Assembly (NCBI GenBank): GCA_963839205.1
Contig: CAWITU010000001.1
Location: forward strand, 4,643-68,642
From: an uncultured bacterium
GTDB lineage: Bacteria; Patescibacteriota; Minisyncoccia; Phycocordibacterales; CAWITU01
Reading direction: 5' to 3'
DNA: 64,000 nt
Shown: piece after piece, positions 36,565 to 60,322 of the stretch
How the letters are laid out: every line of letters starts with the position of its first letter
Position numbering within the stretch: position 1 is the first letter of the stretch
Translations under genes and position numbers: made by a program
The notes under the pieces: generated by a model
Databases searched by the model: none
Told to the model about the DNA's origin: nothing
Seen by the model: the letters and a program-made list of their open reading frames with translations, nothing else

Positions 36565-36578
36565 TTTTTAATACTGAT

Positions 36579-37422: not shown

Positions 37423-37435
37423 TCTAAACGAAAAA

Positions 37436-37473: not shown

Positions 37474-37498
37474 ACTGAAAAACAGAAAGGACTACATT

Positions 37499-37996
37499 AT
37501 GGCAAATAATTTGCCCAAACATCCGAGTCGGGAACAAGCCGCCGCAGATTATGCCGCAGATCTTTGGAATAAAAGAAAGAAAACTCTTATCAACGTGCCA
37601 CAAGAAGTGCACGACAATGCCTTCAAGGCCTGTGTTCGTACAGCCACTGAACATTGGGGCGAAAATCGATTTGACGATGGTCGTGGTTTGAAATTCTATC
37701 GCACCGTCTACCGGTTGCTATCAAAGCGGTCGAACGATAAGCAGGCGAGGCTTAGGGAATCAACCTATCTTCCTCCTTCGCCGACGGCTGTCGTCAAAGA
37801 AGTTACTGCTTCAGTTTCGAAGGTTTCTCAACCGAAGACAGGCCAGCAGGTCATCCCTGCGGTCTTGTCCCAGGTTCGGAAATCTAAGGTCGAAAAGCCT
37901 CAAAAACGTTATCGGGAAGCGATTAATAAACCCGATATGGTTCAGGAGTTTCTTTCTCTATTTCCCGAAGTCCCTCGTTTGCATTGGGATTTTTAA
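37499..37996 (+). CDS. hypothetical protein (165 aa) inserted between rplB and rpsS, higher GC than flanks
   Basis: MANNLPKHPSREQAAADYAADLW.. It has the RBS AGAAAGGA, its own promoter and its own terminator. No family recognised. Confidence 0.6.
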   Translation: MANNLPKHPSREQAAADYAADLWNKRKKTLINVPQEVHDNAFKACVRTATEHWGENRFDDGRGLKFYRTVYRLLSKRSNDKQARLRESTYLPPSPTAVVKEVTASVSKVSQPKTGQQVIPAVLSQVRKSKVEKPQKRYREAINKPDMVQEFLSLFPEVPRLHWDF

Positions 37997-38006
37997 AGGG
38001 AGAAAT

Positions 38007-38046
38007 CAATTATTGCCCCGCGGTCCGTCCTTTGGACGCCGCGGGG
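38007..38046 (+). terminator. rho-independent terminator GCCCCGCGG..CCGCGGGGC
   Basis: A long GC stem with a TTT loop is followed by TTTGTTT. Confidence 0.8.
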
Positions 38047-38072
38047 CCTTTGTTTATATAGTTTCTCTATTA

Positions 38073-38128
38073 AGGCCGATTTGACACGTCTCTATACATT
38101 CTGTTAGTATCTACCAAAGCTCGAAAGA
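38073..38128 (+). promoter_or_regulatory. rpsS promoter (TTGACA-18 nt-TAGTAT) plus 5'-terminal hairpin AAGCTC-GAAA-GAGCTT + U-tract
   Basis: TTGACA lies at 38073-38078, TAGTAT at 38097-38102 and the hairpin at 38109-38124, followed by TTTT. The ATG is at 38144. Confidence 0.55.
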
Positions 38129-38143
38129 GCTTTTTATTTACTT

Positions 38144-38500
38144 ATGTCACGATCACTAAAGAAAGGTCCATATGTCGAAGAAAGACTCCTCAAAAAAATT
38201 GAGGGGAAAAAGCCCTTGGAAACTGGGGTCATTAAGACATGGGCAAGACGAAGTCAGATTTCACCAGAAATGGTTGGTTTCACTTTTGGTGTTCACAACG
38301 GTAAAAATCATATTGAGGTTTTAGTTTCAGAAGATATGGTTGGACACAGACTAGGTGAATTTTCACCTTCAAAGAAATTCTTAAGACACGGAGGAAAAAT
38401 GCAGAAGGAATTGGAAGCTGCTAAGAAGGAATCTGAAATTAATGCTGCTAAGGCCGCTAAAGCTACAACTGAAGCTTCCTCTACAGCCCCTAAGAAATAA
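38144..38500 (+). CDS. rpsS: 30S ribosomal protein S19 with ~25-aa Lys/Ala/Glu-rich C-terminal extension
   Basis: [11 protein letters not shown].., VHNGK..., GHRLGEF. Confidence 0.95.
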
Positions 38501-38508
38501 TAAATATC

Positions 38509-38859
38509 ATGAAAGCCTCTCTTAACACACACCGACAGTCACCAAGAAAAGTTCGCATCGTTGCTGATCTTATTAGAGGCAAAAGCGTTGATAATGCAAT
38601 TGCAGCTCTTAAATTTGCAGATAAGCGCGCTGCCCCTATTATTGAGAAACTTTTGAAATCAGCAGCTGACAATGCTAGAAATAATGATAATGTTGAATCT
38701 TCAGATTTGATTGTTAAGGCAGTTACTGTAAACAAAGGACCAACATTCAAAAGAATGATGCCAAGAGCACGAGGCTCAGGTTTTAGAATTAATAAAAGAA
38801 CCAGCCATATTGATATTACTTTAGAAGCTAAGGCTCCAAAGGCGAAGGCTAAAAAATAA
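38509..38859 (+). CDS. rplV: 50S ribosomal protein L22
   Basis: SPRKVRIVADLIRGK.., MPRARGSGFRINKRTSHI. Confidence 0.95.
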   Translation: MKASLNTHRQSPRKVRIVADLIRGKSVDNAIAALKFADKRAAPIIEKLLKSAADNARNNDNVESSDLIVKAVTVNKGPTFKRMMPRARGSGFRINKRTSHIDITLEAKAPKAKAKK

Positions 38860-38862
38860 ACC

Positions 38863-39520
38863 ATGTCACACACCGTACATCCATATTCACATAGATTGGG
38901 AATCATCCGCGACTGGAAAAGCCGTTGGTTTGGTGTTAACCAGAAATATCGAGATAATTTAAAGGGTGATATTCTCATTAGACAATTTTTGGAGAAAAAA
39001 CTTCGTGGTCAATACATTAGTTCTATTGAATTTGAAAGAAGTCAGAAGACTTTTAGAATAATTATCAAAACTTCGACGACCTGGCGTTATTATCGGCAGA
39101 AGTGGAGAAGGTGCCGTAAAACTTCGAAATGAAATTTTGAAAGAAATTCATCGCTTAGGACTAAACCAAAGAGAAGAACTCAAAGTAGATGTTGAGGAAG
39201 TTAGATCACCAGAAGCCAATGCCGCTATTGTTGCTCAAATGGTTGCTGAAGGACTTGAAAAGCGTTTGCCATTCCGAAGAGTTATGAAGCAGACGGTTGA
39301 TAAGGTTATGGCTAATAGGGAAGTTAAGGGAGTTAGAATTTTCCTTGGAGGACGACTCGGTGGTGCTGAAATGGCCCGCAGTGAAGACCTTAAGAAAGGA
39401 CGAGTTCCACTTCAGACTTTCCGTGCCGACATTGATTTTGCCAAATACGAAGCTAATATGACCTACGGTAATATTGGTATTAAGATTTGGATTTATAAGG
39501 GAGAGATTTTTGATAAATAA
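38863..39520 (+). CDS. rpsC: 30S ribosomal protein S3, one frameshift near 39072-39080
   Basis: HPYSHRLGIIRDWKSRWF.. then ..IIIKTS|RPGVIIGRSGEGAVKLRNEILKEI.. continues in the frame of the 39137 ORF (GGRLGGAEMAR). Confidence 0.93.
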
Positions 39521-39525
39521 TTACC

Positions 39526-39948
39526 ATGCTTCTTCCTAAAAAAGTTAAATTTCGAAAATGGCAGACTGGCAGACGAAACCCAAAGAGGGTAGGTCAATCT
39601 GATCGTGGATCTACGCTTGCCTTCGGTTCTTATGGTCTTAAAGCTACTTCGTCTCATCGCATCAAATCAAATCAGTTAGAGGCTGCTAGAAAGGCAATGG
39701 CGAGACTTGTAAGTAAGACTGGTAAGATGTGGATTAGAATTTTCCCGGATAGACCTTTCACTGCAAAGCCACCAGAAGTTAAGCTTGGTAAAGGAAAAGG
39801 AGATCCACAGGGTTATTGCATTGAAGTCTGGCCAGGACGCATCATTTTTGAAGTTGATGGTATTGAAAGAGCTGTTGCGCTCGAAGCTTTGAGAAAGGCT
39901 GGAACCAAACTTCCAATTAAGACAAAGATTATCACTCGTACTCATTAA
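39526..39948 (+). CDS. rplP: 50S ribosomal protein L16
   Basis: MLLPKKVKFRK.., RIFPDRPFTAKP, KGKGDP. Confidence 0.97.
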   Translation: MLLPKKVKFRKWQTGRRNPKRVGQSDRGSTLAFGSYGLKATSSHRIKSNQLEAARKAMARLVSKTGKMWIRIFPDRPFTAKPPEVKLGKGKGDPQGYCIEVWPGRIIFEVDGIERAVALEALRKAGTKLPIKTKIITRTH

Positions 39949-39953
39949 TTATC

Positions 39954-40220
39954 ATGGCTAAAACTACAGAAAAAAAACAAATAGCAGAAATAAAGAAAGC
40001 TAGAACTCTCAAGGGAGTTGTGGTGTCTGACAAGATGAAAGACACAGCTGTTGTTTTGGTACAAAACTACGTTAAGCATCCAAAGTACGAAAAATTCATG
40101 AAGAAGAGCAAGAAATACAAAGCTCATAATCCAGGAAATACAGTAAAAATTGGAGACCTAGTTGTTATTGCTGAATGCCGACCAATTTCAAAAGATAAAC
40201 ATTTCGTAATCGTTAAATAA
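39954..40220 (+). CDS. rpsQ: 30S ribosomal protein S17
   Basis: LKGVVVSDKMKDTAVVLV..HPKYEKF..YKAHN. It lies only 5 nt after rplP, so there is no room for rpmC. Confidence 0.95.
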   Translation: MAKTTEKKQIAEIKKARTLKGVVVSDKMKDTAVVLVQNYVKHPKYEKFMKKSKKYKAHNPGNTVKIGDLVVIAECRPISKDKHFVIVK

Positions 40221-40221
40221 T

Positions 40222-40593
40222 ATGATACAGCCAAGATCAATCGTGAATATAACTGATAATTCCGGCGCAAAGATTGGAAGAATTTTCAAAGTGCTCGGTG
40301 CTTCCAAGAAACGTTATGCTTCAATCGGTGAAGTCGTAGTACTTTCAGTACAAAAAGCTGAACCTCGAAAGGCAGTTAAGAAGAAAGACGTTCTCCATGC
40401 CGTTGTCGTTCGCCAGAAACAACCATTCCGAAGAAAAGATGGATCTTACATTCGTTTTGATGAGAACGCAGTTGTTATTATTGAAAAAGGAAAGTTGGAA
40501 CCAATTGCAGGACGTATTTTCGGTCCAATTCCAAGAGAATTAGCTGAGCTCGGTTATCAGACAATCGCTTCAAAAGCACCTGAGGTTGTTTAA
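40222..40593 (+). CDS. rplN: 50S ribosomal protein L14
   Basis: MIQPRSIVNITDNSGAK.., IRFDENAVV. Confidence 0.97.
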   Translation: MIQPRSIVNITDNSGAKIGRIFKVLGASKKRYASIGEVVVLSVQKAEPRKAVKKKDVLHAVVVRQKQPFRRKDGSYIRFDENAVVIIEKGKLEPIAGRIFGPIPRELAELGYQTIASKAPEVV

Positions 40594-40608
40594 ATTCGAA
40601 ATACCAAC

Positions 40609-40917
40609 ATGAAAATCAAAAAAGGCGACAACATAATAGTGATTTCTGGAAAAGATAAAGGCAAGCAAGGAAAAGTTTCCGAAGCTTATCCTGCTGAGAA
40701 TCGGATTCTTGTTCCAAATATAAATGTTCACAAGAAACACCAGAGGGCAACCAAAGGTGGTGAGAAAGGCAAGATTATTGATAAAGCTTTTCCAATTCAT
40801 GTATCAAATGCGATGGTTCTTGATAGCGGTGGAAACAGAACACGAGTTGGATTTAAGAAAGTAGGGGATAAGAAAATAAGAGTTGCTAAAACTACTGGTG
40901 GAGAAATTAAACAATAA
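40609..40917 (+). CDS. rplX: 50S ribosomal protein L24
   Basis: MKIKKGDNIIVISGKDKGKQGKV (KOW motif). Confidence 0.95.
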   Translation: MKIKKGDNIIVISGKDKGKQGKVSEAYPAENRILVPNINVHKKHQRATKGGEKGKIIDKAFPIHVSNAMVLDSGGNRTRVGFKKVGDKKIRVAKTTGGEIKQ

Positions 40918-40936
40918 ATAGTTTGTAATTAATACG

Positions 40937-41486
40937 ATGAAAAAGACAATTTCAATCAAAGAAAAAATAAAAGATTCATACGGAGCCCTTAAGGCAGAAT
41001 TTGGTTGGAAAAATATCATGCAAGCTCCAAAGGTTCTTAAGGTTGTCGTAAATTCCGGTACTGGATCAGTTAAAGATAAAAACAAAAAAATCTTAATTGG
41101 AGACAGACTTACAAAAATCACTGGCCAGAAGGCCGCAGAAAGAGGTGCTAAGCAATCAATTGCTAACTTCAAGGTTAGACAAGGTGATGTTGTTGGTTAT
41201 CAGGTGACTCTAAGAGGGGACAGAATGCTTTCTTTCCTAGATAAGGTGGTTAACATCGCTCTTCCTAGAACTAAAGACTTTAGAGGTCTAAAGGCCAGTG
41301 CTATTGATGAAATGGGTAACTACACTCTTGGTATTAAGGAGCACACAGTATTTCCTGAAACTTCAGACGAAGATTTGAAAGATGTTTTTGGATTGAGCAT
41401 GACTGTTGTAACTTCTTCAAAAAACGCTAAAGAAACTAAAGGCATTTTTGACCCATCTCGGTTTTCCTTTTAAGGTTGAGAAATAA
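40937..41486 (+). CDS. rplE: 50S ribosomal protein L5, one frameshift near 41438-41443
   Basis: The track ORF ends ..AKETKGIFDPSRFSF*. Shifting one base gives the expected ..AKETK-AFLTHLGFPFKVEK* ending at 41486. Confidence 0.92.
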
Positions 41487-41499
41487 TCAATAATGAAAA

Positions 41500-41528
41500 G
41501 GGCCTCCGCCTTAGGCGGAGGCCCTTTT
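41500..41528 (+). terminator. rho-independent terminator GGGCCTCCGCC-TTA-GGCGGAGGCCC
   Basis: A perfect 11-bp stem is followed by TTTT. Confidence 0.85.
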
Positions 41529-41549
41529 CATATTTGCTATAATAGTGCC

Positions 41550-42074
41550 ATGAGAAAATTTGAAGCAATTGTAACCATCGTTTTAATAGTTATTGTCTTA
41601 GTTGCGGCCCTATTTTGGGAACACCGCAGTGTAAATGCCCCAGTTATGCCAATTGTTAAAGGTTTAACTTTGTCTGATATTCAAAATACCTCTTATGAGG
41701 GAACCGAACTTATAAATGGTAGTTCAACCCAAGATTTCTTTCATTATGATTTAAGTAGTTATGCTTTAGGAGACTTGAATAGAGATGGTCTTCAGGATGC
41801 AGCTGTAGTTGTTACTGTAACCGGCGCCGATTCATCCGATTTCCTATACGTAGTAATGGATTTGAATGGTATTGCTTCATCCACTCCTGTTTCTATCCCC
41901 ATGAGACAAGGAGAGTCCTATGCTAGAAATATAAAAGTAGATTCAATCAGTAACGGTATTATTACTCTAGACCTTGATATTGCTTCACCTACCGATCCTC
42001 ATTGTTGCCCTTCAATCCAAGCAACAAGGGAATACGCATTTGTCGGAAATACCCTCAGGGAAGTAATCCAATAG
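41550..42074 (+). CDS. membrane-anchored hypothetical protein inserted between rplE and rpsN (leaderless start)
   Basis: TGcTATAAT (41535-41543) lies 6 nt before the ATG. It has the N-terminal TM segment AIVTIVLIVIVLVAALF, a DLNRDGLQD Ca-binding/FG-GAP-like motif and host-like GC. Confidence 0.6.
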   Translation: MRKFEAIVTIVLIVIVLVAALFWEHRSVNAPVMPIVKGLTLSDIQNTSYEGTELINGSSTQDFFHYDLSSYALGDLNRDGLQDAAVVVTVTGADSSDFLYVVMDLNGIASSTPVSIPMRQGESYARNIKVDSISNGIITLDLDIASPTDPHCCPSIQATREYAFVGNTLREVIQ

Positions 42075-42114
42075 GACAATAATTTCCCCTAATAATCTGT
42101 ATGATTATGGCGAT

Positions 42115-42175
42115 TTGACTTTGAAAAGCCTGCCTGATAGGATGAAGGCCACGCTTTTTGAGAAAGCGTTTTCAT
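42115..42175 (+). promoter_or_regulatory. rpsN promoter (TTGACT-17 nt-TAGGAT) plus 5'-terminal hairpin ACGCTTT-TTGAG-AAAGCGT + U-tract
   Basis: TTGACT lies at 42115-42120, TAGGAT at 42138-42143 and the hairpin at 42151-42169. The ATG is at 42179. Confidence 0.55.
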
Positions 42176-42178
42176 TTT

Positions 42179-42364
42179 ATGGCCAAGACATCAGTAAGAG
42201 CTAGAGCTCTAAAAAAGCCAAAATTTGCCTCCCGCGTCGTCCGACGTTGTTTTAGATGCGCTAGAAAGCGTGGATATATGAGGGATTTTGATATGTGTCG
42301 TATTTGTTTTAGAGAAGCTGCTAACGAAGGCCGAATTCCAGGCATCAAAAAATCATCATGGTAA
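42179..42364 (+). CDS. rpsN: 30S ribosomal protein S14, zinc-ribbon (type Z) form
   Basis: 61 aa with CFRC..CRIC. Confidence 0.93.
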   Translation: MAKTSVRARALKKPKFASRVVRRCFRCARKRGYMRDFDMCRICFREAANEGRIPGIKKSSW

Positions 42365-42750
42365 AAGATTCAATCGCCAACCTAATAAGTAATCTTAAGA
42401 ATGCTAACAAAGCTGGACATGAAACAGCTACTTTTCCATATTCCGCTATGAACCTTTCAATTCTAGAAATTCTTGCTAAAAACGGAATGGTTGGAGCAGT
42501 AGCAAGAAAAGGAAAGATGGGACCCCACTTGATCGAAGCGGGGCTTGTTTATGAAGGAAAACTTCCAAAGATTCAGGATGTTAAGAGAATCTCAACTTTT
42601 TCAAAGAGAATTTATAAAGGAGCCAAAGAATTAAAGCCAGTTAAAAGCGGTTTTGGTTTGTCAGTTGTATCAACCTCAAAAGGAATTATGACTGATAGCG
42701 AAGCTAGAAAGGCTAAGCTTGGAGGCGAAGTTTTATTTTCAATTTGGTAA
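42358..42750 (+). CDS. rpsH: 30S ribosomal protein S8
   Basis: DSIANLISNLKNA.., position in the operon, ..GGEVLFSIW. Confidence 0.95.
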   Translation: MVKDSIANLISNLKNANKAGHETATFPYSAMNLSILEILAKNGMVGAVARKGKMGPHLIEAGLVYEGKLPKIQDVKRISTFSKRIYKGAKELKPVKSGFGLSVVSTSKGIMTDSEARKAKLGGEVLFSIW

Positions 42751-42759
42751 TTAAAAAAT

Positions 42760-43296
42760 ATGTCACGAATCGGCCGAAAACAAATTAAAATTCCTGAAAA
42801 GACTGAAATTACAATTTCAGCTGATGGCGTCGTTTCTGTGAAGGGACCAAAAGGAGAAATTTCAAAAAACTTTAAACCAGAAATTGAAATTAAGGTTGAA
42901 GGAGATATCGTTTCTCTTTTACCAAAGGCAGCAAGTCTTGAGAGTAGTGCTCTTTGGGGAACATATTCATCTCACATTCAAAATATGATTGCTGGGGTCA
43001 ATAATCCTTTTGTGAAGAAGCTTATTCTTGAAGGTATTGGTTACAAAGGGGAAGTTGCCGGAGAAAATCTTAATTTGAGCCTTGGTTTGTCACATCCAGT
43101 AAAGATAAAAATTCCAAAGGGTATTACAGTCTTGATTGAAAAAGGAGTTTTCACTTTTACTGGATTTGATAAAGAAGTATTAACCAGCTTTGCTGCTGAA
43201 ATCCGTTCACTCAAAAAGCCTGAACCATATAAAGGAAAGGGTTTTAGATATGATGGTGAAATCATCAAGAGAAAGCAGGGTAAGAAATCTGTTTAA
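42760..43296 (+). CDS. rplF: 50S ribosomal protein L6
   Basis: MSRIGRKQIKIP.., EPYKGKGFRY. Confidence 0.96.
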   Translation: MSRIGRKQIKIPEKTEITISADGVVSVKGPKGEISKNFKPEIEIKVEGDIVSLLPKAASLESSALWGTYSSHIQNMIAGVNNPFVKKLILEGIGYKGEVAGENLNLSLGLSHPVKIKIPKGITVLIEKGVFTFTGFDKEVLTSFAAEIRSLKKPEPYKGKGFRYDGEIIKRKQGKKSV

Positions 43297-43310
43297 TCTA
43301 TATTATTTTC

Positions 43311-43664
43311 ATGAAAACAAACCTCAAAACAATCAAAAGAGAAATAAGACAGAAAAGAATCAGATCAAAAGTTTCTGGTACTGCAGAACGACCACGTCTT
43401 TCTGTTTTCAAATCGAATCGATATATTTCAGCTCAGCTCATTGATGATGATAAAGGTGTAACTATCGCTTCCTTTTCTTCAATCACACTTAAAGGAAAGA
43501 AAGATGGAAAGATAAGTCCTGCTTCAGCTGTTGGAACTGAGATCGCAAAAGCTGGTAAGGCTAAGGGCGTGAAGAAAGTTACATTTGATAGAGGTGGTTA
43601 TATTTACACCGGTCAGATTAAGGAAGTAGCCGATTCTGCAAGATCTGGAGGATTAGATTTTTAA
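43311..43664 (+). CDS. rplR: 50S ribosomal protein L18
   Basis: RPRLSVFKSNRYISAQLIDD.., FDRGGYIYTGQIKEVADSAR. Confidence 0.95.
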   Translation: MKTNLKTIKREIRQKRIRSKVSGTAERPRLSVFKSNRYISAQLIDDDKGVTIASFSSITLKGKKDGKISPASAVGTEIAKAGKAKGVKKVTFDRGGYIYTGQIKEVADSARSGGLDF

Positions 43665-43671
43665 TATTATT

Positions 43672-44325
43672 ATGCAAGACGGTACAACAATACAACCAAA
43701 TACAGAGCCTGAAAAAGTAGTTGAAGCTCCAGCTACTCCTTCAATTAATCCAGCCTCACCCTTCGTCCCTATTCCTCCAGAAAGAAGACAACTTTCAAAG
43801 GAAAAAGGTTTTGCTGGACGCGACCGAAGGAATGATAGAAAGCCAAGACGAGAGCCTCGTGCAAAACCAGAGTTCGACCAAAAGATTATCGACATTCGCC
43901 GTGTGGCGAGAGTGGTTTCTGGAGGACGAAGATTTAGTTTTGCTGTTTCTCTAGTTGCTGGGAATAGAAAGGGAATGGTTGGAGTTGGAATCGGTAAGGC
44001 GGGAGACACATCACTCGCAATTGAAAAAGCCTTCCGAAATGCTAAGAAGAAAATGATTAAAATCAATCTCAAAGAAAACATGGGTATTCCTCATGAGGTT
44101 GAAGCTAAGTATTCAAGTGCTGTGGTTATGATGATGCCAGCAAGAGGAAAGGGGATTGTTGCCGGTTCTTCTGTTAAGGATGTATTAGAACTTGCTGGAG
44201 TCCACGACGTTGTTGCCAAACTTAGATCTGGTAGTAAGAATCGTTTGAATAATGCCAAGGTTGCTGTTAAGGCTCTGTCGCTTCTTAGAAGCAAAGCAAA
44301 ACCTGTAGTTCAGGCTCAAGTTTAA
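43672..44325 (+). CDS. rpsE: 30S ribosomal protein S5 with ~65-aa N-terminal extension
   Basis: The core reads IDIRRVARVVSGGRRFSF..VGVGIGKA... rplO follows after 4 nt, so there is no L30 gene. Confidence 0.94.
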   Translation: MQDGTTIQPNTEPEKVVEAPATPSINPASPFVPIPPERRQLSKEKGFAGRDRRNDRKPRREPRAKPEFDQKIIDIRRVARVVSGGRRFSFAVSLVAGNRKGMVGVGIGKAGDTSLAIEKAFRNAKKKMIKINLKENMGIPHEVEAKYSSAVVMMMPARGKGIVAGSSVKDVLELAGVHDVVAKLRSGSKNRLNNAKVAVKALSLLRSKAKPVVQAQV

Positions 44326-44329
44326 TACC

Positions 44330-44770
44330 ATGCAAACACACACACTAAAAAGAGTTCATAAGAACAAAACTAGCCAGCAAGTCGGACGAGGTGGTACTCG
44401 TGGTAAAACTTCTGGACGTGGTACCAAAGGACAGAATGCTCGATCTGGTCGCAAGAAAAGACCAGAACTTAGAGACATCATCAAGAAACTTCCAAAACTT
44501 AGAGGACGTGGAAAAAACAGTAATGTTGGTATTCAAACAAAACCAATTGCTTTGAACATTGGAGCTATTTCAAAAGCCTTCTCTGCTAATGACACTGTTA
44601 CTACAAAGACTCTTCTCGAACGAGGTCTCATTACTTCTTATAAAGGCCGAGTACCTCAAGTGAAGATTTTGTCGAATGGAGAAGTAGACAAGGTTCTCAT
44701 AATTTCTGGTTGCACAATCTCAAAGGTAGCTTTGGCTAAACTTGAGAAAGCTGGCGGCCAAGTTAAGTAA
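44330..44770 (+). CDS. rplO: 50S ribosomal protein L15
   Basis: VGRGGTRGKTSGRGTKGQNARSG. Confidence 0.95.
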   Translation: MQTHTLKRVHKNKTSQQVGRGGTRGKTSGRGTKGQNARSGRKKRPELRDIIKKLPKLRGRGKNSNVGIQTKPIALNIGAISKAFSANDTVTTKTLLERGLITSYKGRVPQVKILSNGEVDKVLIISGCTISKVALAKLEKAGGQVK

Positions 44771-44771
44771 C

Positions 44772-46043
44772 ATGCAACGTTTTTTCGATAAATGTAAAGC
44801 AATTTTTGAAGACAAATCTCTTCGCAGGAGAATTCTTTTCATGCTCGCAATTCTCGTTGTTTTTAGACTCTTAGCGGCTATTCCAATTCCTAACATTGAT
44901 GCCGAAAAACTTCGTGCTTTTATTTCAAATAACCAATTCATCGGGCTTCTAAACGTTTTCTCTGGCGGCGGTCTCTCAACCCTTTCTCTTGTAATGCTCG
45001 GCGTTGGACCTTTCATTACTGCAACTATCATCATGCAGCTTTTGACTTTGATGTCACCACAGCTTAAGAATTTGTATCAGCATGAAGGTGAAGCAGGGAG
45101 AAAGAAAGTTACACAATATTCAAGACTTCTAACAGTTCCATTGGCTATGGTTCAAGCTTTCGGTTTTATTATTCTTCTGGAGCGACAAAGCATTCTTCCA
45201 GCACTTACATTTTTCCCACTCATAACAGACATTATCGTTATCTGTGGTGGCTCAGTTCTCATGATGTGGCTCGGAGAACTTATTACTGAATTCGGTATTG
45301 GGAACGGTATCTCAGTTATCATCTTTGCTGGTATCGTGGCCAGACTCCCACAAAGCATTTCACAAACCCTCTTCACTTTTGATACTTCCCAAATTCCAAT
45401 TTATCTAGGCTTCTTAGTTGCCGCCGCTTTAATCGTTTACGCTGTTGTTCTTGTCACTGAAGCTGAACGTCCTGTTTCCATAACCTATGCTAAGCAGGTG
45501 AGAGGAAATAGAATTTACGGAGGCGTTTCAACCTATCTTCCACTTAGATTAAACCAAGCTGGGGTTATTCCAATCATTTTTGCTCTCTCTATTCTTCTTT
45601 TCCCTCAACTTATCTTTAGTTTCTTGGAAAATGTTAGAAATGGTGTGGTAAGTAATGTTTCTAGATACATTGTTAATTTGATGGCCAATCAGCTATTTTA
45701 TGGAGCTTGTTATTTCATTTTGGTTTTCTTGTTTACCTACTTCTATACAGCCGTTACTTTCGATCCTGAATCCATTTCAGAAAATCTTCAGAAAAATGGT
45801 GCGTTTATTCCAGGGGTTCGTCCAGGACAATCTACAGCGCTTCATTTGAGTAAAATTCTTCTTAGAATTACTTTTGTTGGAGCATTGTTTCTCGGTGTCA
45901 TCGCTGTCATTCCGCTTATCTTACGCGCAGTAACCGGTATCACTTCACTGGCTATTGGCGGTACAGCACTTCTAATCGTCGTCTCTGTTGCACTTGATCT
46001 CATCAAACGTATTGATGCCCAGCTATCTGCTCGAGAATATTAG
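44772..46043 (+). CDS. secY: preprotein translocase subunit SecY
   Basis: Ten-TM protein with ..LGVGPFITATIIMQLL.., GISVIIFAGI. I place the start at MQRFF (44772). Confidence 0.95.
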   Translation: MQRFFDKCKAIFEDKSLRRRILFMLAILVVFRLLAAIPIPNIDAEKLRAFISNNQFIGLLNVFSGGGLSTLSLVMLGVGPFITATIIMQLLTLMSPQLKNLYQHEGEAGRKKVTQYSRLLTVPLAMVQAFGFIILLERQSILPALTFFPLITDIIVICGGSVLMMWLGELITEFGIGNGISVIIFAGIVARLPQSISQTLFTFDTSQIPIYLGFLVAAALIVYAVVLVTEAERPVSITYAKQVRGNRIYGGVSTYLPLRLNQAGVIPIIFALSILLFPQLIFSFLENVRNGVVSNVSRYIVNLMANQLFYGACYFILVFLFTYFYTAVTFDPESISENLQKNGAFIPGVRPGQSTALHLSKILLRITFVGALFLGVIAVIPLILRAVTGITSLAIGGTALLIVVSVALDLIKRIDAQLSAREY

Positions 46044-46047
46044 AAAT

Positions 46048-46653
46048 ATGAAAGAACAACCTTTAAGTTTTATTTTTATTGGTCCTTCTGGATCGGGTAA
46101 GGGGACTCAGGTAGGACTACTCAGAACATATCTAGAGAAAAAGGATACTTACCCAACTTTATATGTTGAGACGGGGGCACAATTTCGAGAGTTTATAAAA
46201 GGAGACTCCTTTTCAAGTAAGCTTTCAAACGAAGTATATAAAACCGGAGCTCGCCAGCCGGACTTTCTTGCTGTCTGGATCTGGGCAAGTTTTATTGTTG
46301 ATAAAATCAAAAATGATGACCACATTATTTTTGATGGGACTCCAAGATCTATGCCGGAGGCCATAATACTTGATACGGCGGTCCGTTTTTACAATATCAA
46401 ACCTTTTGTCGTCTATCTTAAATTATCCCGTCAGAGTTCGGAAAAGCGCCTATTAGCTAGGGGCAGGATGGACGATAGAACTGAAGCGGAAATCATTAAA
46501 AGACTAGATTGGTTTCAGACAGATGTCATGCCGGCTGTGGAACATTTCAGGACAAGTGACCTGTATCACTTTGTCGAATTAGATGGAGAAAAGACCATTG
46601 AAGAGATTCATAAAGACCTGGTTTCTCGAATTGAATCGGAGTATTCTAAATAG
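46048..46653 (+). CDS. adk: adenylate kinase
   Basis: FIGPSGSGKGTQ P-loop, DGTPRS, and position after secY. Confidence 0.9.
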   Translation: MKEQPLSFIFIGPSGSGKGTQVGLLRTYLEKKDTYPTLYVETGAQFREFIKGDSFSSKLSNEVYKTGARQPDFLAVWIWASFIVDKIKNDDHIIFDGTPRSMPEAIILDTAVRFYNIKPFVVYLKLSRQSSEKRLLARGRMDDRTEAEIIKRLDWFQTDVMPAVEHFRTSDLYHFVELDGEKTIEEIHKDLVSRIESEYSK

Positions 46654-47421
46654 ATGATTAGTATTAAAACTAAAGAAGAAATAGCGACTCTAAAAGAAGG
46701 CGGGGCAATTCTCGCTGATATTCTGGATGTTTTAAAAAATGAAGTTAGAGTTGGTGTTCCGTCCCTTCAGATAGAGGACTCAGTCAGAAAGATTTGTGGT
46801 GAAAAAAAAGTAATACCTTCCTTTTTGAATTATGCCTCAGTTGGTGAAAAACCATATCCTGCCGCTATTTGTATTTCGATCAACGATGAAATTGTTCATG
46901 GCTTTGCCAAGAAAGATAAAATTTTTAAAGAAGGAGATGTCGTTAAGCTAGACATGGGAATTATTTATAAAAAAATGTTTCTTGATAGTGCTATAACTTT
47001 CGGGGTAGGGAAAATCGACGATAAGGCTGAAAATCTTATAAGGGTTACTGAAGAAGTAATGTACAAAGCAATTGATGCTGTTAAGCCCGGAGTAAGAACG
47101 GGAGATATTGGTCAGGTTATCGAAGATTATGTTAAGCCAAAAGGGTTTTCCTTGTTAGTGGAACTAGGTGGACATGGCGTTGGATATGCCGTACACGAAG
47201 AACCATTTATTCCAAACTTCGGCAAAGCCGGTGAAGGTCCAATTCTAAAAGAAGGTATGGTTATCTGTATTGAGCCTATGGTAAATGAAGGTAGGGCAGA
47301 TATTTTTGTTGATAAGAAGGACGGTCTAACTTTCAAAACAAAAGACGGCAAAAGAGCCGCTCACTTTGAACATACTATTGCTGTGACTGATTCTGGGTCT
47401 GAGATATTGACGAGGCGCTAG
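46654..47421 (+). CDS. map: type I methionine aminopeptidase
   Basis: ..VVKLDMG.., GHGVGYAVHEEP, ICIEPM, HFEHT. Confidence 0.95.
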   Translation: MISIKTKEEIATLKEGGAILADILDVLKNEVRVGVPSLQIEDSVRKICGEKKVIPSFLNYASVGEKPYPAAICISINDEIVHGFAKKDKIFKEGDVVKLDMGIIYKKMFLDSAITFGVGKIDDKAENLIRVTEEVMYKAIDAVKPGVRTGDIGQVIEDYVKPKGFSLLVELGGHGVGYAVHEEPFIPNFGKAGEGPILKEGMVICIEPMVNEGRADIFVDKKDGLTFKTKDGKRAAHFEHTIAVTDSGSEILTRR

Positions 47422-48059: not shown

Positions 48060-50837
48060 ATGGAAGCGGTCCCATCACAATTTAATTCTCCTGAACAAGA
48101 GCTGGCGTACCTACGCGAGCAGGTGGCAAGTAAGGAACTTGAACTTAAGAAGAATAAAGAAGAGGCTTATCGACCGAATGTTGTTAATGAAACGATTCAG
48201 GAATACAAGAAACAGATTCCGGAAGAAGTTTTGAGCAAAGATCTCCGTTTGAGTCACATGCATAAGGAAGCAATAGTCTTAGATCTAAAACCTGAACCAC
48301 ATGATAGACAGATTGAAGAGCTAATCGGTCTGCTTCAAGAAAAAGGGGTTTTAAATACAATTGCTATTATCGAAAGAATGAACAATCCTCATCTAGAGGA
48401 CGATTTTCATCGTTTCTTGGTTCAATACATTAAACAAGGCTTACCAGCCCCAGGTCTTAAAGAGGGAGGTACTGAAGCAAAAGCTCTTGCTTATACACTT
48501 TACGAAGTTTCTTTGCCTGATATTAAAAAAGAGGAAGAAGAAAAGGAATTAAAACTTTTGGTTTCTTCAATGGAACAATTTTATTCTGGAATGCTTTCTG
48601 TAGAAATTGATTCAAAGAGAAGAAGTTACATGTCGATTGAACTTGCTGTTTCTGCTCATGATGAGGAGACGGTTTTTTATGCAGCGGTGCCAGATGATAA
48701 GAAGAATCTTTTTGAGAAACAAGTCTTGTCCATTTTTCCTCACGCCAAACTGATTGAGAAGAAAGATGATTACAATATTTTCAACGAAGATGGCGTTTCG
48801 GTCGGGTCATACCTGACCCAATCCCGAAACGCCATCTATCCAATCAAGACCTACGACCAATTTGATTATGATCCTTTGAATGTTGTTCTAAATACTTTTT
48901 CTAAACTCGATAGAGAGCACGAGGGGGCCTCAATTCAGCTTATATTCAGCCCTGCCGGCGATTATTATGTTAGCCGATACAAACACGCACTTAAGGAAAT
49001 TACGAGTGGCGTGAAGCTAAAAAAAGCTATAGATATTCGCCATACTGTCTTCGGGGAGTTTATGAAGACGGGTAAAGAAATCATGTCAGAAACTGTTAAA
49101 GATATGTTTAAACCTTCCGGTAAGAAAGGTGAAGTTGAAAAAGAAAAACAACAGCCGATTGACGAATCAGCGGTTGAAAACATCAAGAAAAAAGTTGAGA
49201 GTCCAATTGTTGATGCCAATATTAGAATTGTGGTATCAGCCCAAAATCAAATTAGGGCCAATCAAGTTCTTTCCGATCTTGAATCAGCTTTCAATCAATT
49301 TGATAACCCACTTGGTAACGCTATTAAATTTGAAAGACAAACAAAAGGAAATCTTTCCAAATTATTTAAAGATTATTCGTATAGACTATTTTCAGATGAA
49401 CATAAATTGCCACTAAGTATTAAGGAGGTGACAACGATGATTCATTTTCCTGGAGAAGCGATTAAATCATCACCCAATCTTAAGAGATCTAAAGCTGGTA
49501 CCTCGGCGGCGCCACTCAATCTTTCTCATGATGGAATTTTGCTTGGTTACAATAAAGACCGAAATATTGAGACTAAGATTTTCATGGGCAAGGAAGACCG
49601 TTTGCGCCATTTTTATACAATCGGTCAAACTGGAACTGGTAAGACAAACTTCCTGAAAAATATGATTATTCAGGACATTCAAAATGGGGACGGTGTTTGT
49701 ATGATTGACCCACACGGCTCTGATATTCAAGATGTTTTGGCTAACATTCCAAAAGAACGTTACGAAGATGTTATTTATTTTGACCCAAGCTACACCGGAC
49801 GTCCGATGGCGCTTAACATGCTTGAGTATGATCCAGCTTTTCCAGAGCAAAAGACCTTCGTTGTTAACGAATTATTTAATATTTTCCAAAAATTGTACGG
49901 TGGAAACCCTGAATCAATGGGTCCAATGTTTGAACAGTATTTTAGAAATTCCACCATGCTTGTTATTGAGGACCCAGAAACAGGGAATACTCTGCTTGAT
50001 GTCTCACGTGTAATGTCTAACAAATCTTTTAGAGATTTGAAACTTTCAAGATGTAAAAATCCAATTGTTGTTCAGTTCTGGAAAGAGATTGCTGAGAAGG
50101 CTGGGGGAGAAAGTTCACTTGCCAACATTGTTCCATATATCACTAGCAAATTTGATATATTCTTGGCTAACGACATCATGCGTCCGATTGTCGCTCAAGA
50201 ACATTCGTCCTTTAATTTCCGAGACATTATGGATAATAAGAAAATTCTTTTGGTCAATTTGGCCAAAGGTAGGCTTGGCGATATTAACGCCAATCTTCTC
50301 GGTCTAATTTTGGTTGGTAAAATTCTAATGGCAGCTCTTTCAAGAGTTGACTCATTCGGTAAAGATTTACCGCCTTTCTATTTGTACATCGATGAATTCC
50401 AAAATATTACGACTAATTCGATTTCCACGATTCTGTCTGAGGCTCGAAAGTATAAATTAAGTTTGACCATTGCCCACCAATTCATTGCCCAGCTTGAAGA
50501 CGATATTAGAGATTCAGTTTTTGGAAACGTCGGTTCAATTGCTTCATTCCGCGTCGGCGCCGAAGACGCGGAATATTTAGAGAAACAATTTGATCCAGTT
50601 TTTACTCGTTCAGATATTATGAATTTGGATAATTACAACGCTTACATAAAAATGCTCTCTGGCGGTGCTCCGGTTCGTCCATTCAACATTGTCACTCTCG
50701 TAGCTCCAAGAGGTAATCCAGACATCATTGCTAATCTAAAAGAACTTTCTTATCTAAAGTTTGGTAAAGACAAGGACGAAGTCCAAGAAACTATTATGGA
50801 GAAGTACAAAAAAGCCCCAGTTTCTGATAGAATCTAG
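48060..50837 (+). CDS. large P-loop ATPase of the VirD4/TraD/HerA-FtsK-like type (coupling-protein-like) with ~480-aa unknown N-terminal half
   Basis: Walker A GQTGTGKTNF, Walker B-like FYLYIDEFQN, later TIAHQF. Confidence 0.65.
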   Translation: MEAVPSQFNSPEQELAYLREQVASKELELKKNKEEAYRPNVVNETIQEYKKQIPEEVLSKDLRLSHMHKEAIVLDLKPEPHDRQIEELIGLLQEKGVLNTIAIIERMNNPHLEDDFHRFLVQYIKQGLPAPGLKEGGTEAKALAYTLYEVSLPDIKKEEEEKELKLLVSSMEQFYSGMLSVEIDSKRRSYMSIELAVSAHDEETVFYAAVPDDKKNLFEKQVLSIFPHAKLIEKKDDYNIFNEDGVSVGSYLTQSRNAIYPIKTYDQFDYDPLNVVLNTFSKLDREHEGASIQLIFSPAGDYYVSRYKHALKEITSGVKLKKAIDIRHTVFGEFMKTGKEIMSETVKDMFKPSGKKGEVEKEKQQPIDESAVENIKKKVESPIVDANIRIVVSAQNQIRANQVLSDLESAFNQFDNPLGNAIKFERQTKGNLSKLFKDYSYRLFSDEHKLPLSIKEVTTMIHFPGEAIKSSPNLKRSKAGTSAAPLNLSHDGILLGYNKDRNIETKIFMGKEDRLRHFYTIGQTGTGKTNFLKNMIIQDIQNGDGVCMIDPHGSDIQDVLANIPKERYEDVIYFDPSYTGRPMALNMLEYDPAFPEQKTFVVNELFNIFQKLYGGNPESMGPMFEQYFRNSTMLVIEDPETGNTLLDVSRVMSNKSFRDLKLSRCKNPIVVQFWKEIAEKAGGESSLANIVPYITSKFDIFLANDIMRPIVAQEHSSFNFRDIMDNKKILLVNLAKGRLGDINANLLGLILVGKILMAALSRVDSFGKDLPPFYLYIDEFQNITTNSISTILSEARKYKLSLTIAHQFIAQLEDDIRDSVFGNVGSIASFRVGAEDAEYLEKQFDPVFTRSDIMNLDNYNAYIKMLSGGAPVRPFNIVTLVAPRGNPDIIANLKELSYLKFGKDKDEVQETIMEKYKKAPVSDRI
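48789..48836. repeat. 48-nt nested GC-rich palindrome inside the ATPase gene
   Basis: GATGGCGTTTCGG (13 bp, perfect) .. GGGTCA-TACC-TGACCC .. CCGAAACGCCATC. Confidence 0.95.
50546..50574. repeat. perfect 10-bp-stem palindrome inside the ATPase gene
   Basis: ATTCCGCGTC-GGCGCCGAA-GACGCGGAAT. Confidence 0.85.
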
Positions 50838-50870: not shown

Positions 50871-51482
50871 ATGGCAGAACAAAAACATCAGGATGAAAGA
50901 ACGTTGATTATTATCAAGCCAGACGGCGTTCAGAGAAGTTTGATTGGAGAGATAATTCAGCGATATGAAAGAGTTGGTCTAAAACTTCTCGGAGTTAAGA
51001 TGGTGGTGCCGACAGTTGATCATATTGAGAAACATTACACCCTTGATCCAAATTGGCGGAGAGTAACAGGTGAAAAAACAATCAAAGGGTATCAGGATAA
51101 GGGGATGACGCCTCCATCAATGGACCCATTAGAGATCACGGGCCGAATTTTGGAAGGTCTTAAGAAATATATTTCGAGTGGTCCTGTCATTGCTATGGTT
51201 TGGCAGGGAGCTCATGCTGTAAAGATTGTTAGAAAGATTACTGGAGGTACTGAACCCCTCACGTCTGACGTTGGATCTATTCGAGGAGACTTCGTTTTGG
51301 ACTCATACCAACTTTCTGACACCGATGGAAGAGCAGTTAGAAACTTAGTGCACGCATCTGGTTCACCGGACGAAGCAAATATGGAAATCAATCACTGGTT
51401 TAAAGCAGATGAGCTAATTGATTACAGATTAATTCAAGACCAGATTCTCTATGACGTCAATTTGGATGGAATTCTTGAATAA
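50871..51482 (+). CDS. ndk: nucleoside-diphosphate kinase (long form with internal insertion)
   Basis: ERTLIIIKPDGVQR.., ..NLVHASGS.. active-site region. It is 203 aa versus the usual ~140. Confidence 0.8.
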   Translation: MAEQKHQDERTLIIIKPDGVQRSLIGEIIQRYERVGLKLLGVKMVVPTVDHIEKHYTLDPNWRRVTGEKTIKGYQDKGMTPPSMDPLEITGRILEGLKKYISSGPVIAMVWQGAHAVKIVRKITGGTEPLTSDVGSIRGDFVLDSYQLSDTDGRAVRNLVHASGSPDEANMEINHWFKADELIDYRLIQDQILYDVNLDGILE

Positions 51483-51745: not shown

Positions 51746-52162
51746 ATGAAAAGCGCACCTTTATTTAAATTACTCTTCAGTCTCTTGGTGGTTATTGCCT
51801 CTTTACATATTTTGTCTAGTTTCTTGTATTTATATTGGTCAATTCAATGGATTCATTTAATTATTCATTTCTTAAGCGGAATATTAGTTAGTCTTTCGGC
51901 TTTGTGTTTAATTTATGTTTCTGAATATGATTTTTTAAGAAAGAGGATTTCTGAAGCGCCGATAGCGACGTTCTTTGTCGCTATCGGCGCTTCACTTGTT
52001 GCAGGTATTCTCTGGGAGGTCTTTGAGCTAACTTTTGGTATAACTTTTCTTTCTGATCAGAACTACTTATCCCAAAATGGCTCCGAAGTAATTGCTGCTC
52101 TGTCTGGGGGACTCATTGGTTGGGCTTATTTTTCTTACAAACACCTCAATCATCGTGTATAA
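51746..52162 (+). CDS. hypothetical integral membrane protein (leaderless start)
   Basis: TGaTATAAT (51731-51739) lies 6 nt before the ATG. The protein has four hydrophobic segments. Confidence 0.6.
   Translation: MKSAPLFKLLFSLLVVIASLHILSSFLYLYWSIQWIHLIIHFLSGILVSLSALCLIYVSEYDFLRKRISEAPIATFFVAIGASLVAGILWEVFELTFGITFLSDQNYLSQNGSEVIAALSGGLIGWAYFSYKHLNHRV
51953..51993. repeat. perfect 17-bp-stem GC-rich palindrome inside the membrane-protein gene
   Basis: GAAGCGCCGATAGCGAC-GTTCTTT-GTCGCTATCGGCGCTTC. It encodes EAPIATFFVAIGAS. Confidence 0.95.
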
Positions 52163-54182: not shown

Positions 54183-54205
54183 TACAAAAAGTTAACATAG
54201 AAAAA

Positions 54206-54234
54206 GGGCCCCAGCCTAAGGCTGGGGCCCTTTT
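54206..54234. terminator. bidirectional terminator GGGCCCCAGCC-TAA-GGCTGGGGCCC
   Basis: Perfect 11-bp stem flanked by an A-run and a T-run, between convergent genes. Confidence 0.85.
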
Positions 54235-55309: not shown

Positions 55310-55369
55310 TTAGGTTTGTATTAAGAAATACCCGAGAACTATAGCATATATTCCGATTCCCGCAAGCTT

Positions 55370-56431
55370 CTATAGAAGCTTGCGGAATGGCCAGATTAAG
55401 GCTTCTAATAGCTTCTTTTTTAACGGTCTTTTGAGCCATTCATCTAATGTGAGTTCGATAGAGTGATTCATGTCTTCAAGAAAGCCTTTTTTAAGTAAGC
55501 TAACTAATTCCTGATTATCTCCGCAGATATTACCTTCAAAGTTGTACCAGAGACTTATCATATCTAAGTTCATACTGCCAACTGTTGCCCAGCCATCAAT
55601 CACCGCTGTTTTACTATGAATAAACTTACCGTGACGATAAATTTTAATTCCAACTTTTAAACATTCTTCAAAATAAGTATGGCTTCCTCGATCGACTAAG
55701 TAGTGATTGGTTTCAAGCGGAATGATTAGCCGAACATCCACCCCGCGTCTGACCGCTGCCCGAAGACTTTTTATCAGACGGTTATCAGGGATAAAGTAGG
55801 GAGTAGTTAAGTAAGCAAAGTGATCGGCTCTTTGGATTGCCTTTATTAATTCTTTGTAAAGAAAATGTCGGCTAGGAATTGGAGAATTAGTAATAAAATT
55901 CAGACCATCCGAACCAATAGGAATTTTCTTTGATCTTCTTCGAATATCTTTTCTGGCTAATTGCCAATCGGCGTTAAAAACTCTGACCATTCTTGAAATG
56001 GTGATTGGATTATCAATTTCTATTTCAGTCTCAATCCAGTCTTTCATTTCTTCACCAACGCAAATACTTCCTGTAAAAGCAATTTTATAATCAATGATTA
56101 TATTGCGACGGTGATTTCGGAAATACCAAAAACTTCTATGATTGCTACTTGGGGCGAAGGGGGATAACCAGTTGAAAAATTCAAGTTTTACTCCAGATTC
56201 GGTAAGTCTAGTTGCAAGTGGTGAATTAGCTAGGAAAAAACTTCCGACAGCATCAAATAGGCATCTAACTTCAACGCCGGACTTAGCCTTTTGAGTTAAG
56301 ACATTTACAAAACGCTCTGATATTGAGTCGTTCTCCATCAAATATTGTTCAAATAGGATGGTCTTCTCAGCTTTTTCAAAAGCACTTAAGAGGACACCCC
56401 ATATTTCCTCAGTTTCTCGATATAGTTTCAT
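55370..56431 (-). CDS. cls: phospholipase D / cardiolipin synthase family protein (two HKD motifs)
   Basis: HRRNIIIDYKIAFTGSICVG and HSKTAVIDGWATVGSMNLD. I place the start at MKLYRETEE. Confidence 0.7.
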   Translation of the reverse strand: MKLYRETEEIWGVLLSAFEKAEKTILFEQYLMENDSISERFVNVLTQKAKSGVEVRCLFDAVGSFFLANSPLATRLTESGVKLEFFNWLSPFAPSSNHRSFWYFRNHRRNIIIDYKIAFTGSICVGEEMKDWIETEIEIDNPITISRMVRVFNADWQLARKDIRRRSKKIPIGSDGLNFITNSPIPSRHFLYKELIKAIQRADHFAYLTTPYFIPDNRLIKSLRAAVRRGVDVRLIIPLETNHYLVDRGSHTYFEECLKVGIKIYRHGKFIHSKTAVIDGWATVGSMNLDMISLWYNFEGNICGDNQELVSLLKKGFLEDMNHSIELTLDEWLKRPLKKKLLEALIWPFRKLL

Positions 56432-60284: not shown

Positions 60285-60322
60285 AAAAAATCAGCCCCGC
60301 GCATATAGAAATGCGCGGGGCT
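60285..60322 (-). terminator. rho-independent terminator AGCCCCGCGCAT/ATGCGCGGGGCT
   Basis: Perfect 12-bp stem, followed on the minus strand by GATTTTTT. Confidence 0.85.

Follow-up and report, generated by a model that had tools for sequence, protein, structure and literature searches.

We analysed a stretch of 64,000 nucleotides (nt) from an uncultured bacterium of the Patescibacteriota (assembly GCA_963839205.1, contig CAWITU010000001.1, positions 4,643 to 68,642 of the forward strand), referred to here as the window, and focused on two palindromes inside one protein-coding gene. The first-pass annotation had named the product of this gene a VirD4/TraD-like ATPase and had held that two palindromes in one gene argue against chance. 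The host gene and the parts of the two palindromes are listed below, with positions counted from the first letter of the window.

48060-50837, + strand: host gene; an uninterrupted open reading frame (ORF) for a 925-aa protein with an N-terminal DUF8128 and a T4CP/HerA-like ATPase; a core gene of Paceibacteria.
48788-48801, + strand: left outer arm of palindrome 1, AGATGGCGTTTCGG, encoding (E)DGVS with the codons GAT GGC GTT TCG.
48804-48819, + strand: inner hairpin of palindrome 1, GGGTCA-TACC-TGACCC, with a 6-bp stem, set off by a 2-nt 5' bulge and a 4-nt 3' bulge.
48824-48837, + strand: right outer arm of palindrome 1, CCGAAACGCCATCT, encoding (S)RNAI(Y) with the codons CGA AAC GCC ATC.
50546-50555, + strand: left arm of palindrome 2, ATTCCGCGTC, encoding (S)FRV.
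50565-50574, + strand: right arm of palindrome 2, GACGCGGAAT, encoding DAE(Y).

Both palindromes were present as first described, with palindrome 1 slightly longer than reported: one extra A-T pair extended its arms, GATGGCGTTTCGG and CCGAAACGCCATC, from a 13-bp to a perfect 14-bp outer stem (48788-48801 with 48824-48837), which encloses the interior TC-GGGTCA-TACC-TGACCC-AATC. Palindrome 2, ATTCCGCGTC-GGCGCCGAA-GACGCGGAAT (50546-50574), formed a perfect 10-bp stem with a 9-nt loop. As had also been noted, they lie in frame within the uninterrupted ORF and are GC-rich relative to the gene (GC content of 0.58 for palindrome 1 and 0.66 for palindrome 2 vs 0.38). The minimum free energy (MFE) of RNA folding was -34.3 kcal/mol for palindrome 1 (z -8.1; equalled by 0 of 200 shuffles) and -16.7 kcal/mol for palindrome 2 (z -2.8; equalled by 3 of 200), and folding with DNA parameters agreed (-21.9 and -11.4, respectively). 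The interior of palindrome 1 taken separately folded better than 1000 of 1000 shuffles. Within the loop region of palindrome 2 lies a further perfect palindrome, TCGGCGCCGA (50554-50563; 10 nt, no loop), with its centre off the main axis; the site therefore has two overlapping symmetry centres, and its loop uses the rare GC-rich codons GGC and GCC.

The arms of both palindromes are aligned with codons. GAT GGC GTT TCG is the reverse complement of CGA AAC GCC ATC, as TTC CGC GTC is of GAC GCG GAA, and both palindromes are in phase 2, in which codon position 2 pairs with position 2 and position 1 with position 3. The peptides are reverse-complement-compatible, the pairing base was chosen at each free synonymous position, and all pairs in both stems are Watson-Crick pairs with no G·U. 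Given the peptide and the codon usage of the window, the probability of the codons was 6.4e-7 for the outer stem of palindrome 1, 5.7e-4 for its inner stem, and 4.7e-5 for palindrome 2; many of the stem codons are rare in the window (TCG, 0.09; CTG, 0.06; CGC, 0.09; TCC, 0.09). In the peptide spanning palindrome 1 (E-DGVS-VGSYLTQS-RNAI-Y), conservation is complete at G245 and at least 90% at N257, I259, and P261; in that spanning palindrome 2 (S-FRV-GAE-DAE-Y), it is complete at R831, V832, G833, D836, A837, and E838 and at least 90% at F830. Taken by itself, palindrome 1 lies far outside what chance would give. Palindrome 2 on its own stands out only moderately, yet it belongs to a GC-rich class for which chance gives about 0.5 members per window.

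The C-terminal half of the host protein matched T4SS-DNA_transf, TrwB_AAD_bind, TraG-D_C, and DUF87 of Pfam weakly (E about 1e-7), and precomputed hits placed the DUF8128 domain at its N-terminus. Its 2784 homologues were all from metagenome-assembled genomes of Parcubacteria/Paceibacteria, with a top identity of 76% and closest relatives at 74-77% amino acid (aa) identity; the protein of the window itself was not among the recorded sequences. The gene order r-protein operon-secY-adk-map-(bPH_2)-host gene-ndk-DUF2238-RNase J-like was the same in the window and in the nearest relatives, and inspection of this neighbourhood in the window and in the relatives revealed no relaxase or type IV secretion system (T4SS) genes around the host gene. 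The host gene is a chromosomal syntenic core gene of Paceibacteria, within the candidate phyla radiation (CPR), and not part of a conjugative element. The label 'VirD4/TraD-like' goes back to these weak Pfam matches.

To compare the two sites with those of other genomes, 80 orthologous loci were aligned by tblastn of both palindrome regions, and 81 orthologues of the host gene (220 kb) were used for a census of stems. Both sites aligned without gaps against the 80 loci, so neither palindrome is an insertion. The closest orthologue in the genome collection, L001, carries the peptide DGVTVGSYLAQSRNAI / FNEDGVTVGSYLAQSRNAIYPL at site 1; its longest stem there was 5 bp, 6 of 12 pairs were complementary, and its MFE was -8.6, compared with -34.3 in the window. 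Stems at site 1 were at most 9 bp in every other orthologue. At site 2, where 10 of 10 pairs are complementary in the window, the orthologues centre on 5 of 10, 3 of which are forced by the peptide; the nearest approaches were L011 (9/10) and L004 (8/10), neither of them close kin. Two further near relatives, L081 and L082 (74-76% aa identity), have neither palindrome. L081 and L001 share 78% nt identity, and no orthologue pair exceeds about 78%.

In the comparison with orthologues that had been proposed as a check, neither palindrome is kept in the nearest ones. Because near-identical peptides occur in these relatives without the stems, the stems are recent and were built at synonymous sites. 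The palindromes are lineage-specific, are made of rare synonymous codons, and are not insertions. At both sites, the peptides force partial complementarity, leaving a pre-existing imperfect inverted repeat (typically 5/10 and up to 9/10 at site 2). The exact sequence of palindrome 1 had no match in metagenome contigs. A local recombination tract around palindrome 2 from L004 or L011 was also considered on account of high local identity and set aside, since the region is strongly conserved at the protein level and the identity is uninformative.

Next, we counted perfect stems of at least 10 bp with loops of at most 40 nt in the window, using dinucleotide shuffles as the null for the whole window and, for coding sequences (CDSs), resampling of synonymous codons from the window's own usage with the proteins held fixed. 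Against shuffles, 25 stems of at least 10 bp were found where 3.7 were expected, bearing out on the 64-kb scale the hairpin census with shuffled controls that had been suggested; the corresponding numbers were 8 vs 0.02 for stems of at least 14 bp and 21 vs 0.33 for stems with a GC content of at least 0.5. Within CDSs, codon resampling gave 16 vs 2.7 for at least 10 bp, 7 vs 0.25 for at least 12 bp, 5 vs 0.02 for at least 14 bp, and 14 vs 0.46 for GC-rich stems (GC at least 0.5). Of these 16 CDS stems, those at 32202 and 41493 probably represent terminators lying in ORFs that were called wrongly. The other coding palindromes of the window include the following.

17953-18002, + strand: nested 50-nt coding palindrome in tpiA, with a 10-bp outer and a 10/11-bp inner stem and no indel relative to the triosephosphate isomerase (TPI) orthologue of L005.
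17816-17867: AT-rich 13-bp perfect coding inverted repeat in tpiA, TTCAAAAAAAACA ... TGTTTTTTTTGAA, whose poly-A and poly-T runs encode KKTKK and VFFE.
51952-51994, + strand: 18-bp perfect coding palindrome in a DUF2238 membrane-protein gene; the right arm encodes VAIGAS in a conserved transmembrane (TM) helix, the left arm SEAPIAT in an indel-rich linker.
20176-20210, + strand: 16-bp perfect coding palindrome in recJ.
7804-7843, + strand: 16-bp perfect coding palindrome in an rsmE-like methyltransferase gene.
8135-8162: second coding palindrome in the rsmE-like gene, 10 bp.
9154-9202, - strand: 10-bp GC-rich coding palindrome in the trigger-factor gene (tig), 49 nt overall; its inner hairpin is not significant.
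14076-14116, + strand: 11-bp coding palindrome in a T2SS-F/PilC-like gene.
22203-22236, + strand: 10-bp GC-rich coding palindrome in the RNase H gene (rnhA).
23675-23701, + strand: 10-bp coding palindrome in comEC, with a GC content of 0.9.

The excess rose steeply with arm length in the shuffle, resampling, and mismatch tests. Among 14-pair windows in CDSs, those with 0 mismatches numbered 4 (0.03 expected), those with 1 mismatch 2 (0.66 expected), and those with 2 mismatches 14 (7.3 expected), a distribution that fits elements born perfect and then decaying. About 747 CDS sites could host a stem of at least 14 bp by synonymous choice alone and 4 have realised it, which fits rare stochastic events. 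The palindromes are scattered from 0.09 to 0.90 of gene length, have different arm sequences, and occur as phase 2 (six), phase 3 (six), and phase 1 (two). Their arms had no other copies in the window, so they are not a repeat family. The sharing of k-mers among arms was above a mononucleotide-shuffle null; since pairs of terminators dominated it, it was not accepted as evidence of common origin. The tpiA repeat at 17816-17867 is the sole long AT-rich coding inverted repeat of the window.

The ~57 kb of CDS in the window hold some 12 coding palindromes, a density of 0.21 per kb, at which a 2.8-kb gene is expected to carry 0.6 and carries at least two with a probability of about 0.12; rsmE and tpiA likewise carry at least two. 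The argument from two palindromes in one gene therefore stood in part. The palindromes are non-random, as the excess over codon resampling shows, but not specific to the gene, and no signal particular to the ATPase gene is indicated. No coding palindrome of at least 10 bp occurred in the r-protein operon (33337-47421, about 14 kb), whereas an even spread would put about 3 there, and the other ~43 kb of CDS held about 12; this is as expected if palindromes are mildly deleterious in highly expressed genes.

The same excess extended to relatives. The 81 orthologues of the host gene contained 8 stems of at least 12 bp (0.75 expected) and 5 of at least 14 bp (0.15 expected), all at different positions: 19 bp in L076, 16 bp with zero loop in L079, 15 bp in L058, 14 bp in L082, 13 bp in L074 and in L072, and 12 bp with zero loop in L081. 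Related genomes thus carry palindromes elsewhere in the host gene or none at all, a dynamic of gain and loss. As a control, three 50-kb segments of Escherichia coli K-12 (150 kb) were scanned: 3 coding stems reached 10 bp, with lengths of 10, 11, and 11 bp, and none reached 12 bp; all longer stems there were intergenic. The excess of coding palindromes is genome- and clade-wide and absent from the E. coli control. Coding palindromes in other AT-rich loci were not always GC-rich.

In the relatives' palindromes, an arm encoding conserved residues usually faces an arm in which the residues of the family have been overwritten.

L058: conserved left arm, GGGAA(L), 4/6 matching the consensus in columns 99-100% conserved; overwritten right arm, TPRRR in place of AGDYY, 0/5 (Y is 75% conserved).
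L074: conserved right arm, SAAAP (A 94%, A 88%, P 100%); overwritten left arm, GAAAP, 1/5.
L082: conserved left arm, GGEFF, 4/5; overwritten right arm, KEFAT, 2/5.
L076: conserved left arm, TVSDLF; overwritten right arm, in a variable linker rich in K and E.

A clear example is the 15-bp palindrome of L058 (5683-5732; GC content of 0.93), where TPRRR, encoded by the reverse complement of the GGGAA arm, displaces the conserved (A)GDYY. This asymmetry of donor and recipient in the relatives, together with the DUF2238 palindrome of the window, is the footprint expected of one-arm overwriting. A total of 213 perfect inverted repeats (at least 12 bp) were counted in 1.45 Mb of Paceibacteria loci. 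Loops of 0-2 nt occurred in 63 of them, and some of these lie in CDSs, among them the 32-nt zero-loop palindrome of L079 and the 24-nt zero-loop palindrome of L081, the latter with a net gain of one codon relative to the window, L001, and L082. Since a loop of 0-2 nt cannot be used by an RNA hairpin, the symmetry lies at the DNA level. Very long perfect palindromes with loops of 0-4 nt were also seen inside long ORFs of L076 (3882-3955, 35-bp arms), L023 (8456-8510, 26-bp arms), L072 (4104-4149, 23-bp arms), and L079 (10092-10123, 16-bp arms); among these, only that of L079 lies in a gene of checked identity, the orthologue of the host gene.

Other features of the window were recorded alongside. 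Intergenic terminator-like perfect palindromes occur at 5287-5318, 41493-41531, 54202-54234, 55360-55385, and 37431-37461, with stems of 13-19 bp and loops of 0-3 nt, so that their symmetry runs through the centre. The hairpins at 32202-32234 and 60293-60322, about 28 kb apart, have near-identical arms (AGCCCCGCGACAT / AGCCCCGCGCAT) and may represent a small family of terminator-like elements. Immediately downstream of the host gene, the ndk ORF (50871-51482) encodes 203 aa against a Pfam profile of 135 positions, which is matched in two stretches; this suggests an N-terminal extension or an internal insertion. The protein is equally long in relatives (201 aa in L081). The window has a GC content of 38.7% and a third-position GC content (GC3) of 0.32. 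Neither tRNA genes nor Rfam families at the gathering threshold were found across the 64 kb. Cumulative GC skew climbs throughout the window (1-64000) and the majority of genes lie on the + strand, which places the window inside one replichore.

We consider quasi-palindrome template switching, or homogenisation of arms at the DNA level, filtered by selection on the protein, to be the best explanation of these data, and hold it with moderate confidence. Reverse-complement-compatible peptide pairs (DGVS/RNAI and FRV/DAE) would keep a quasi-palindrome permanently present in the DNA. While DNA is being synthesised in replication or repair, the new strand would fold back, or take the opposite arm as template, and copy it, so that a single event could make one arm match the other exactly as its reverse complement. 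Most such conversions would be purged by purifying selection; those that are synonymous, as both focal palindromes and the tpiA element may be, or that overwrite weakly constrained residues would survive and be eroded later by point mutations. Both focal palindromes would then be conservative outcomes, in which the peptides already permitted a synonymous conversion. Read in this way, the hairpins come about as by-products of a process of mutation that shows itself with unusual clarity in this Paceibacteria lineage, and they are not signals of the ATPase gene. We infer both the mechanism itself and the origin of the two palindromes by it from sequence comparisons.

Template switching is the established explanation for an excess of perfect inverted repeats and for perfect stems that arise de novo (PMC5941160, PMC8794818), and switching at quasi-palindromes has been described in E. 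coli, yeast, and primates (PMC5941160, PMC7202029, PMC8604942, PMC8794818). In the models of Ripley and Lovett (Lavi et al. 2018, PMC5941160; PMC7202029), imperfect inverted repeats are made perfect in one multi-base event templated by the other arm, and the excess steepens with arm length, as it does here. The excess documented in E. coli is in non-coding DNA, to which the attribution to template switching in bacteria at large mainly refers (PMC5941160), whereas that in the window lies inside conserved CDSs, with the event deduced from the sequence. Monttinen & Loytynoja 2022 (PMC8794818) and a study of yeast (PMC8604942) likewise described perfect stems made in one step and multinucleotide changes in coding sequence, comparable to the change of DYY to RRR in L058, although the events in those studies were polarised on phylogenies of close relatives.

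The closest likeness is with the coding palindromes of mitochondrial genes in Nematomorpha; the study that described them proposed an origin by conversion or template switching and identified no function (Mikhailov 2019, PMC6649704). There too, perfect repeats lie within genes, their arms encode conserved residues without indels by virtue of the degeneracy of the code, they are gained and lost at different sites in relatives, and they far exceed the expectation for a gradual process. The nematomorph repeats differ in being mitochondrial, in reaching 284 bp, and in preferring phase 1; those of the window lie on a bacterial chromosome, have stems of 10-19 bp, are GC-rich in an AT-rich genome and sometimes nested, and occur equally in phases 2 and 3. 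The palindromes described here thus share with them the location inside CDSs, conserved arms without insertion, a codon-aware excess, and dynamic gain and loss, and lack the long arms and the phase-1 preference. In a literature search, coding palindromes in CPR/Patescibacteria were not found described.

Four observations weigh against the origin of the palindromes by template switching. First, the excess is almost purely GC-rich (14 of the 16 stems in CDSs have a GC content of at least 0.5 in a genome of 38.7% GC), and AT-rich stems occur at chance frequency. A plain polymerase template switch does not predict this, so an added assumption is needed: a stability-dependent intermediate, biased repair, or loss of AT-rich palindromes. 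Second, fully synonymous outcomes, as in palindromes 1 and 2 and the tpiA element, need the third codon positions of the donor arm to have been right already. Third, with the nearest relative at about 76% aa and 78% nt identity, a cluster of substitutions templated by one arm is not polarisable at these sites. Fourth, palindrome 1 and the tpiA element share an architecture: each spans 50 nt and has an outer stem, a 2-nt 5' bulge, an inner GGG...CCC, an NNCC tetraloop, and a 4-nt 3' bulge. The tetraloops are GUCC in tpiA and UACC in palindrome 1, the 3' bulges GAAA and AAUC, respectively, and the codon phases differ; both inner hairpins folded better than 1000 shuffles. This shared two-tier form looks more like a recognised structure than an accident, though coincidence is possible.

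The last observation bears on the possibility that hairpins were selected at the level of RNA or single-stranded DNA (ssDNA), with codons tuned by selection, as decay barriers, sites of RNase III-type processing, pauses of translation or transcription, or ssDNA signals. The GC-rich bias, the shared two-tier architecture, and k-mers in common with terminators keep this explanation alive, and we regard it as possible but unlikely. CGTTTCG is common to palindrome 1 and the terminator-like palindrome 5287-5318, and the 9-mer GCGGAGGCC is common to the recJ palindrome (20176-20210) and 41493-41531. Selection would also account for the thermodynamic stability of the GC-rich stems, the use of rare codons, the very strong z-scores, and the near-perfect complementarity of the FRVGAEDAE site in the unrelated L011 and L004; an RNase J-like gene 1.3 kb downstream makes structured decay barriers conceivable. 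Against these points stand the absence of both palindromes from the nearest orthologues despite near-identical peptides, the scattered positions, and the zero-loop palindromes of relatives, some palindromes there even overwriting conserved residues. Perfect stems are at least as numerous as those with one mismatch, a ratio that would not be expected of a tolerant RNA helix under mutation-selection balance. The stems lack G·U pairs, and where pairing first fails beside the 33 GC-rich coding stems compared, G·T on the sense strand (10) and A·C (9) were about equal, giving no wobble bias in this small sample. No conservation of structure with covariation was found at homologous positions, where orthologues lack the stems; an E-value scan of 47-53 kb against Rfam returned only sub-threshold noise from miRNA models at the hairpins; and neither palindrome had a T-run or a terminator or promoter call, the downstream sequences being ATCCAATC and ATTTAGAG. 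The RNA 3'-end or regulatory element implied by the first-pass annotation was therefore not borne out: the T-tail, retention in the nearest orthologues, and a strand-specific wobble signature are all missing.

A combination of the two processes is also conceivable, although we rate it as quite unlikely. Template switching would supply hairpins and selection would retain stable folds, with two-tier 50-nt hairpins (2-nt/4-nt loops, NNCC) recognised by a structure-specific factor such as a nuclease, a decay-barrier protein, or an ssDNA-binding protein. Sequences would be free to vary, since the fold alone would matter. A search of the 1.45 Mb of Paceibacteria loci with a two-tier hairpin descriptor found no clear members with 2/4-nt loops beyond the two of the window.

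Chance, in the form of reverse-complement-compatible peptides with a fortuitous choice of codons, is highly improbable. It could draw on the three pairs that FRV...DAE forces in every orthologue, on the centring of orthologues at 5/10, on the 2.7 perfect 10-bp CDS stems expected per window, and on the modest z of palindrome 2. The probability of the palindrome 1 outer stem given its peptide (about 6e-7), the 4-5 stems of at least 14 bp where 0.02-0.03 are expected per window, the excess of GC-rich stems, and its recurrence across 81 orthologues reject chance for palindrome 1 and for the whole class.

More improbable still is a cis element specific to this gene, either an intrinsic terminator or attenuator within the gene or a hairpin of the oriT/nic type linked to a T4CP-like function. 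Stable hairpins do form part of terminators and transfer origins, and the protein has weak similarity to coupling proteins, but the hairpins lack T-runs and terminator calls, equivalent palindromes occur in tpiA, recJ, rsmE, tig, and other genes, orthologues carry them at other positions or not at all, and the gene lies on the chromosome next to the r-protein operon, in a neighbourhood free of relaxase and T4SS genes. The terminator palindromes of the same genome (intrinsic or bidirectional, at 5287-5318, 41493-41531, and 54202-54234) resemble the coding palindromes in their GC-rich perfect stems of similar length and differ in lying between genes, with A/T runs at their flanks.

In-frame insertion of a small mobile palindromic element (of the kind of Rickettsia palindromic elements (RPEs), miniature inverted-repeat transposable elements (MITEs), repetitive extragenic palindromes (REPs), or mitochondrial GC clusters) has a negligible probability: the frame-preserving GC-rich hairpins within genes of an AT-rich genome superficially resemble RPEs, which also place hairpin-forming sequence in ORFs with the frame kept, but RPEs are an inserted repeat family that adds residues, whereas the window palindromes show no length difference from 80 orthologues, encode family-conserved residues in their arms, and have no other copies in the window or, for palindrome 1, in metagenome contigs. 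RPE insertions, REPs, terminators, and conserved cis-RNAs each have a defining feature that the window palindromes miss.

The finding is a clean, quantifiable peculiarity of evolutionary genomics and not a new molecular system. If template switching is the correct explanation, this lineage would be a bacterial counterpart of the nematomorph mitochondria with their coding palindromes. Perfect hairpins would be arising by mutation in its essential conserved genes at ~100 times the expectation from codon usage and would sometimes overwrite conserved residues. It would also hint at weak suppression of quasi-palindrome mutagenesis, or of the removal of palindromes, in these organisms. Significant intragenic hairpins in such genomes should not be called regulatory RNAs unless conservation supports it, and template switching would be a visible force in the evolution of proteins and codons in the reduced genomes of the CPR.

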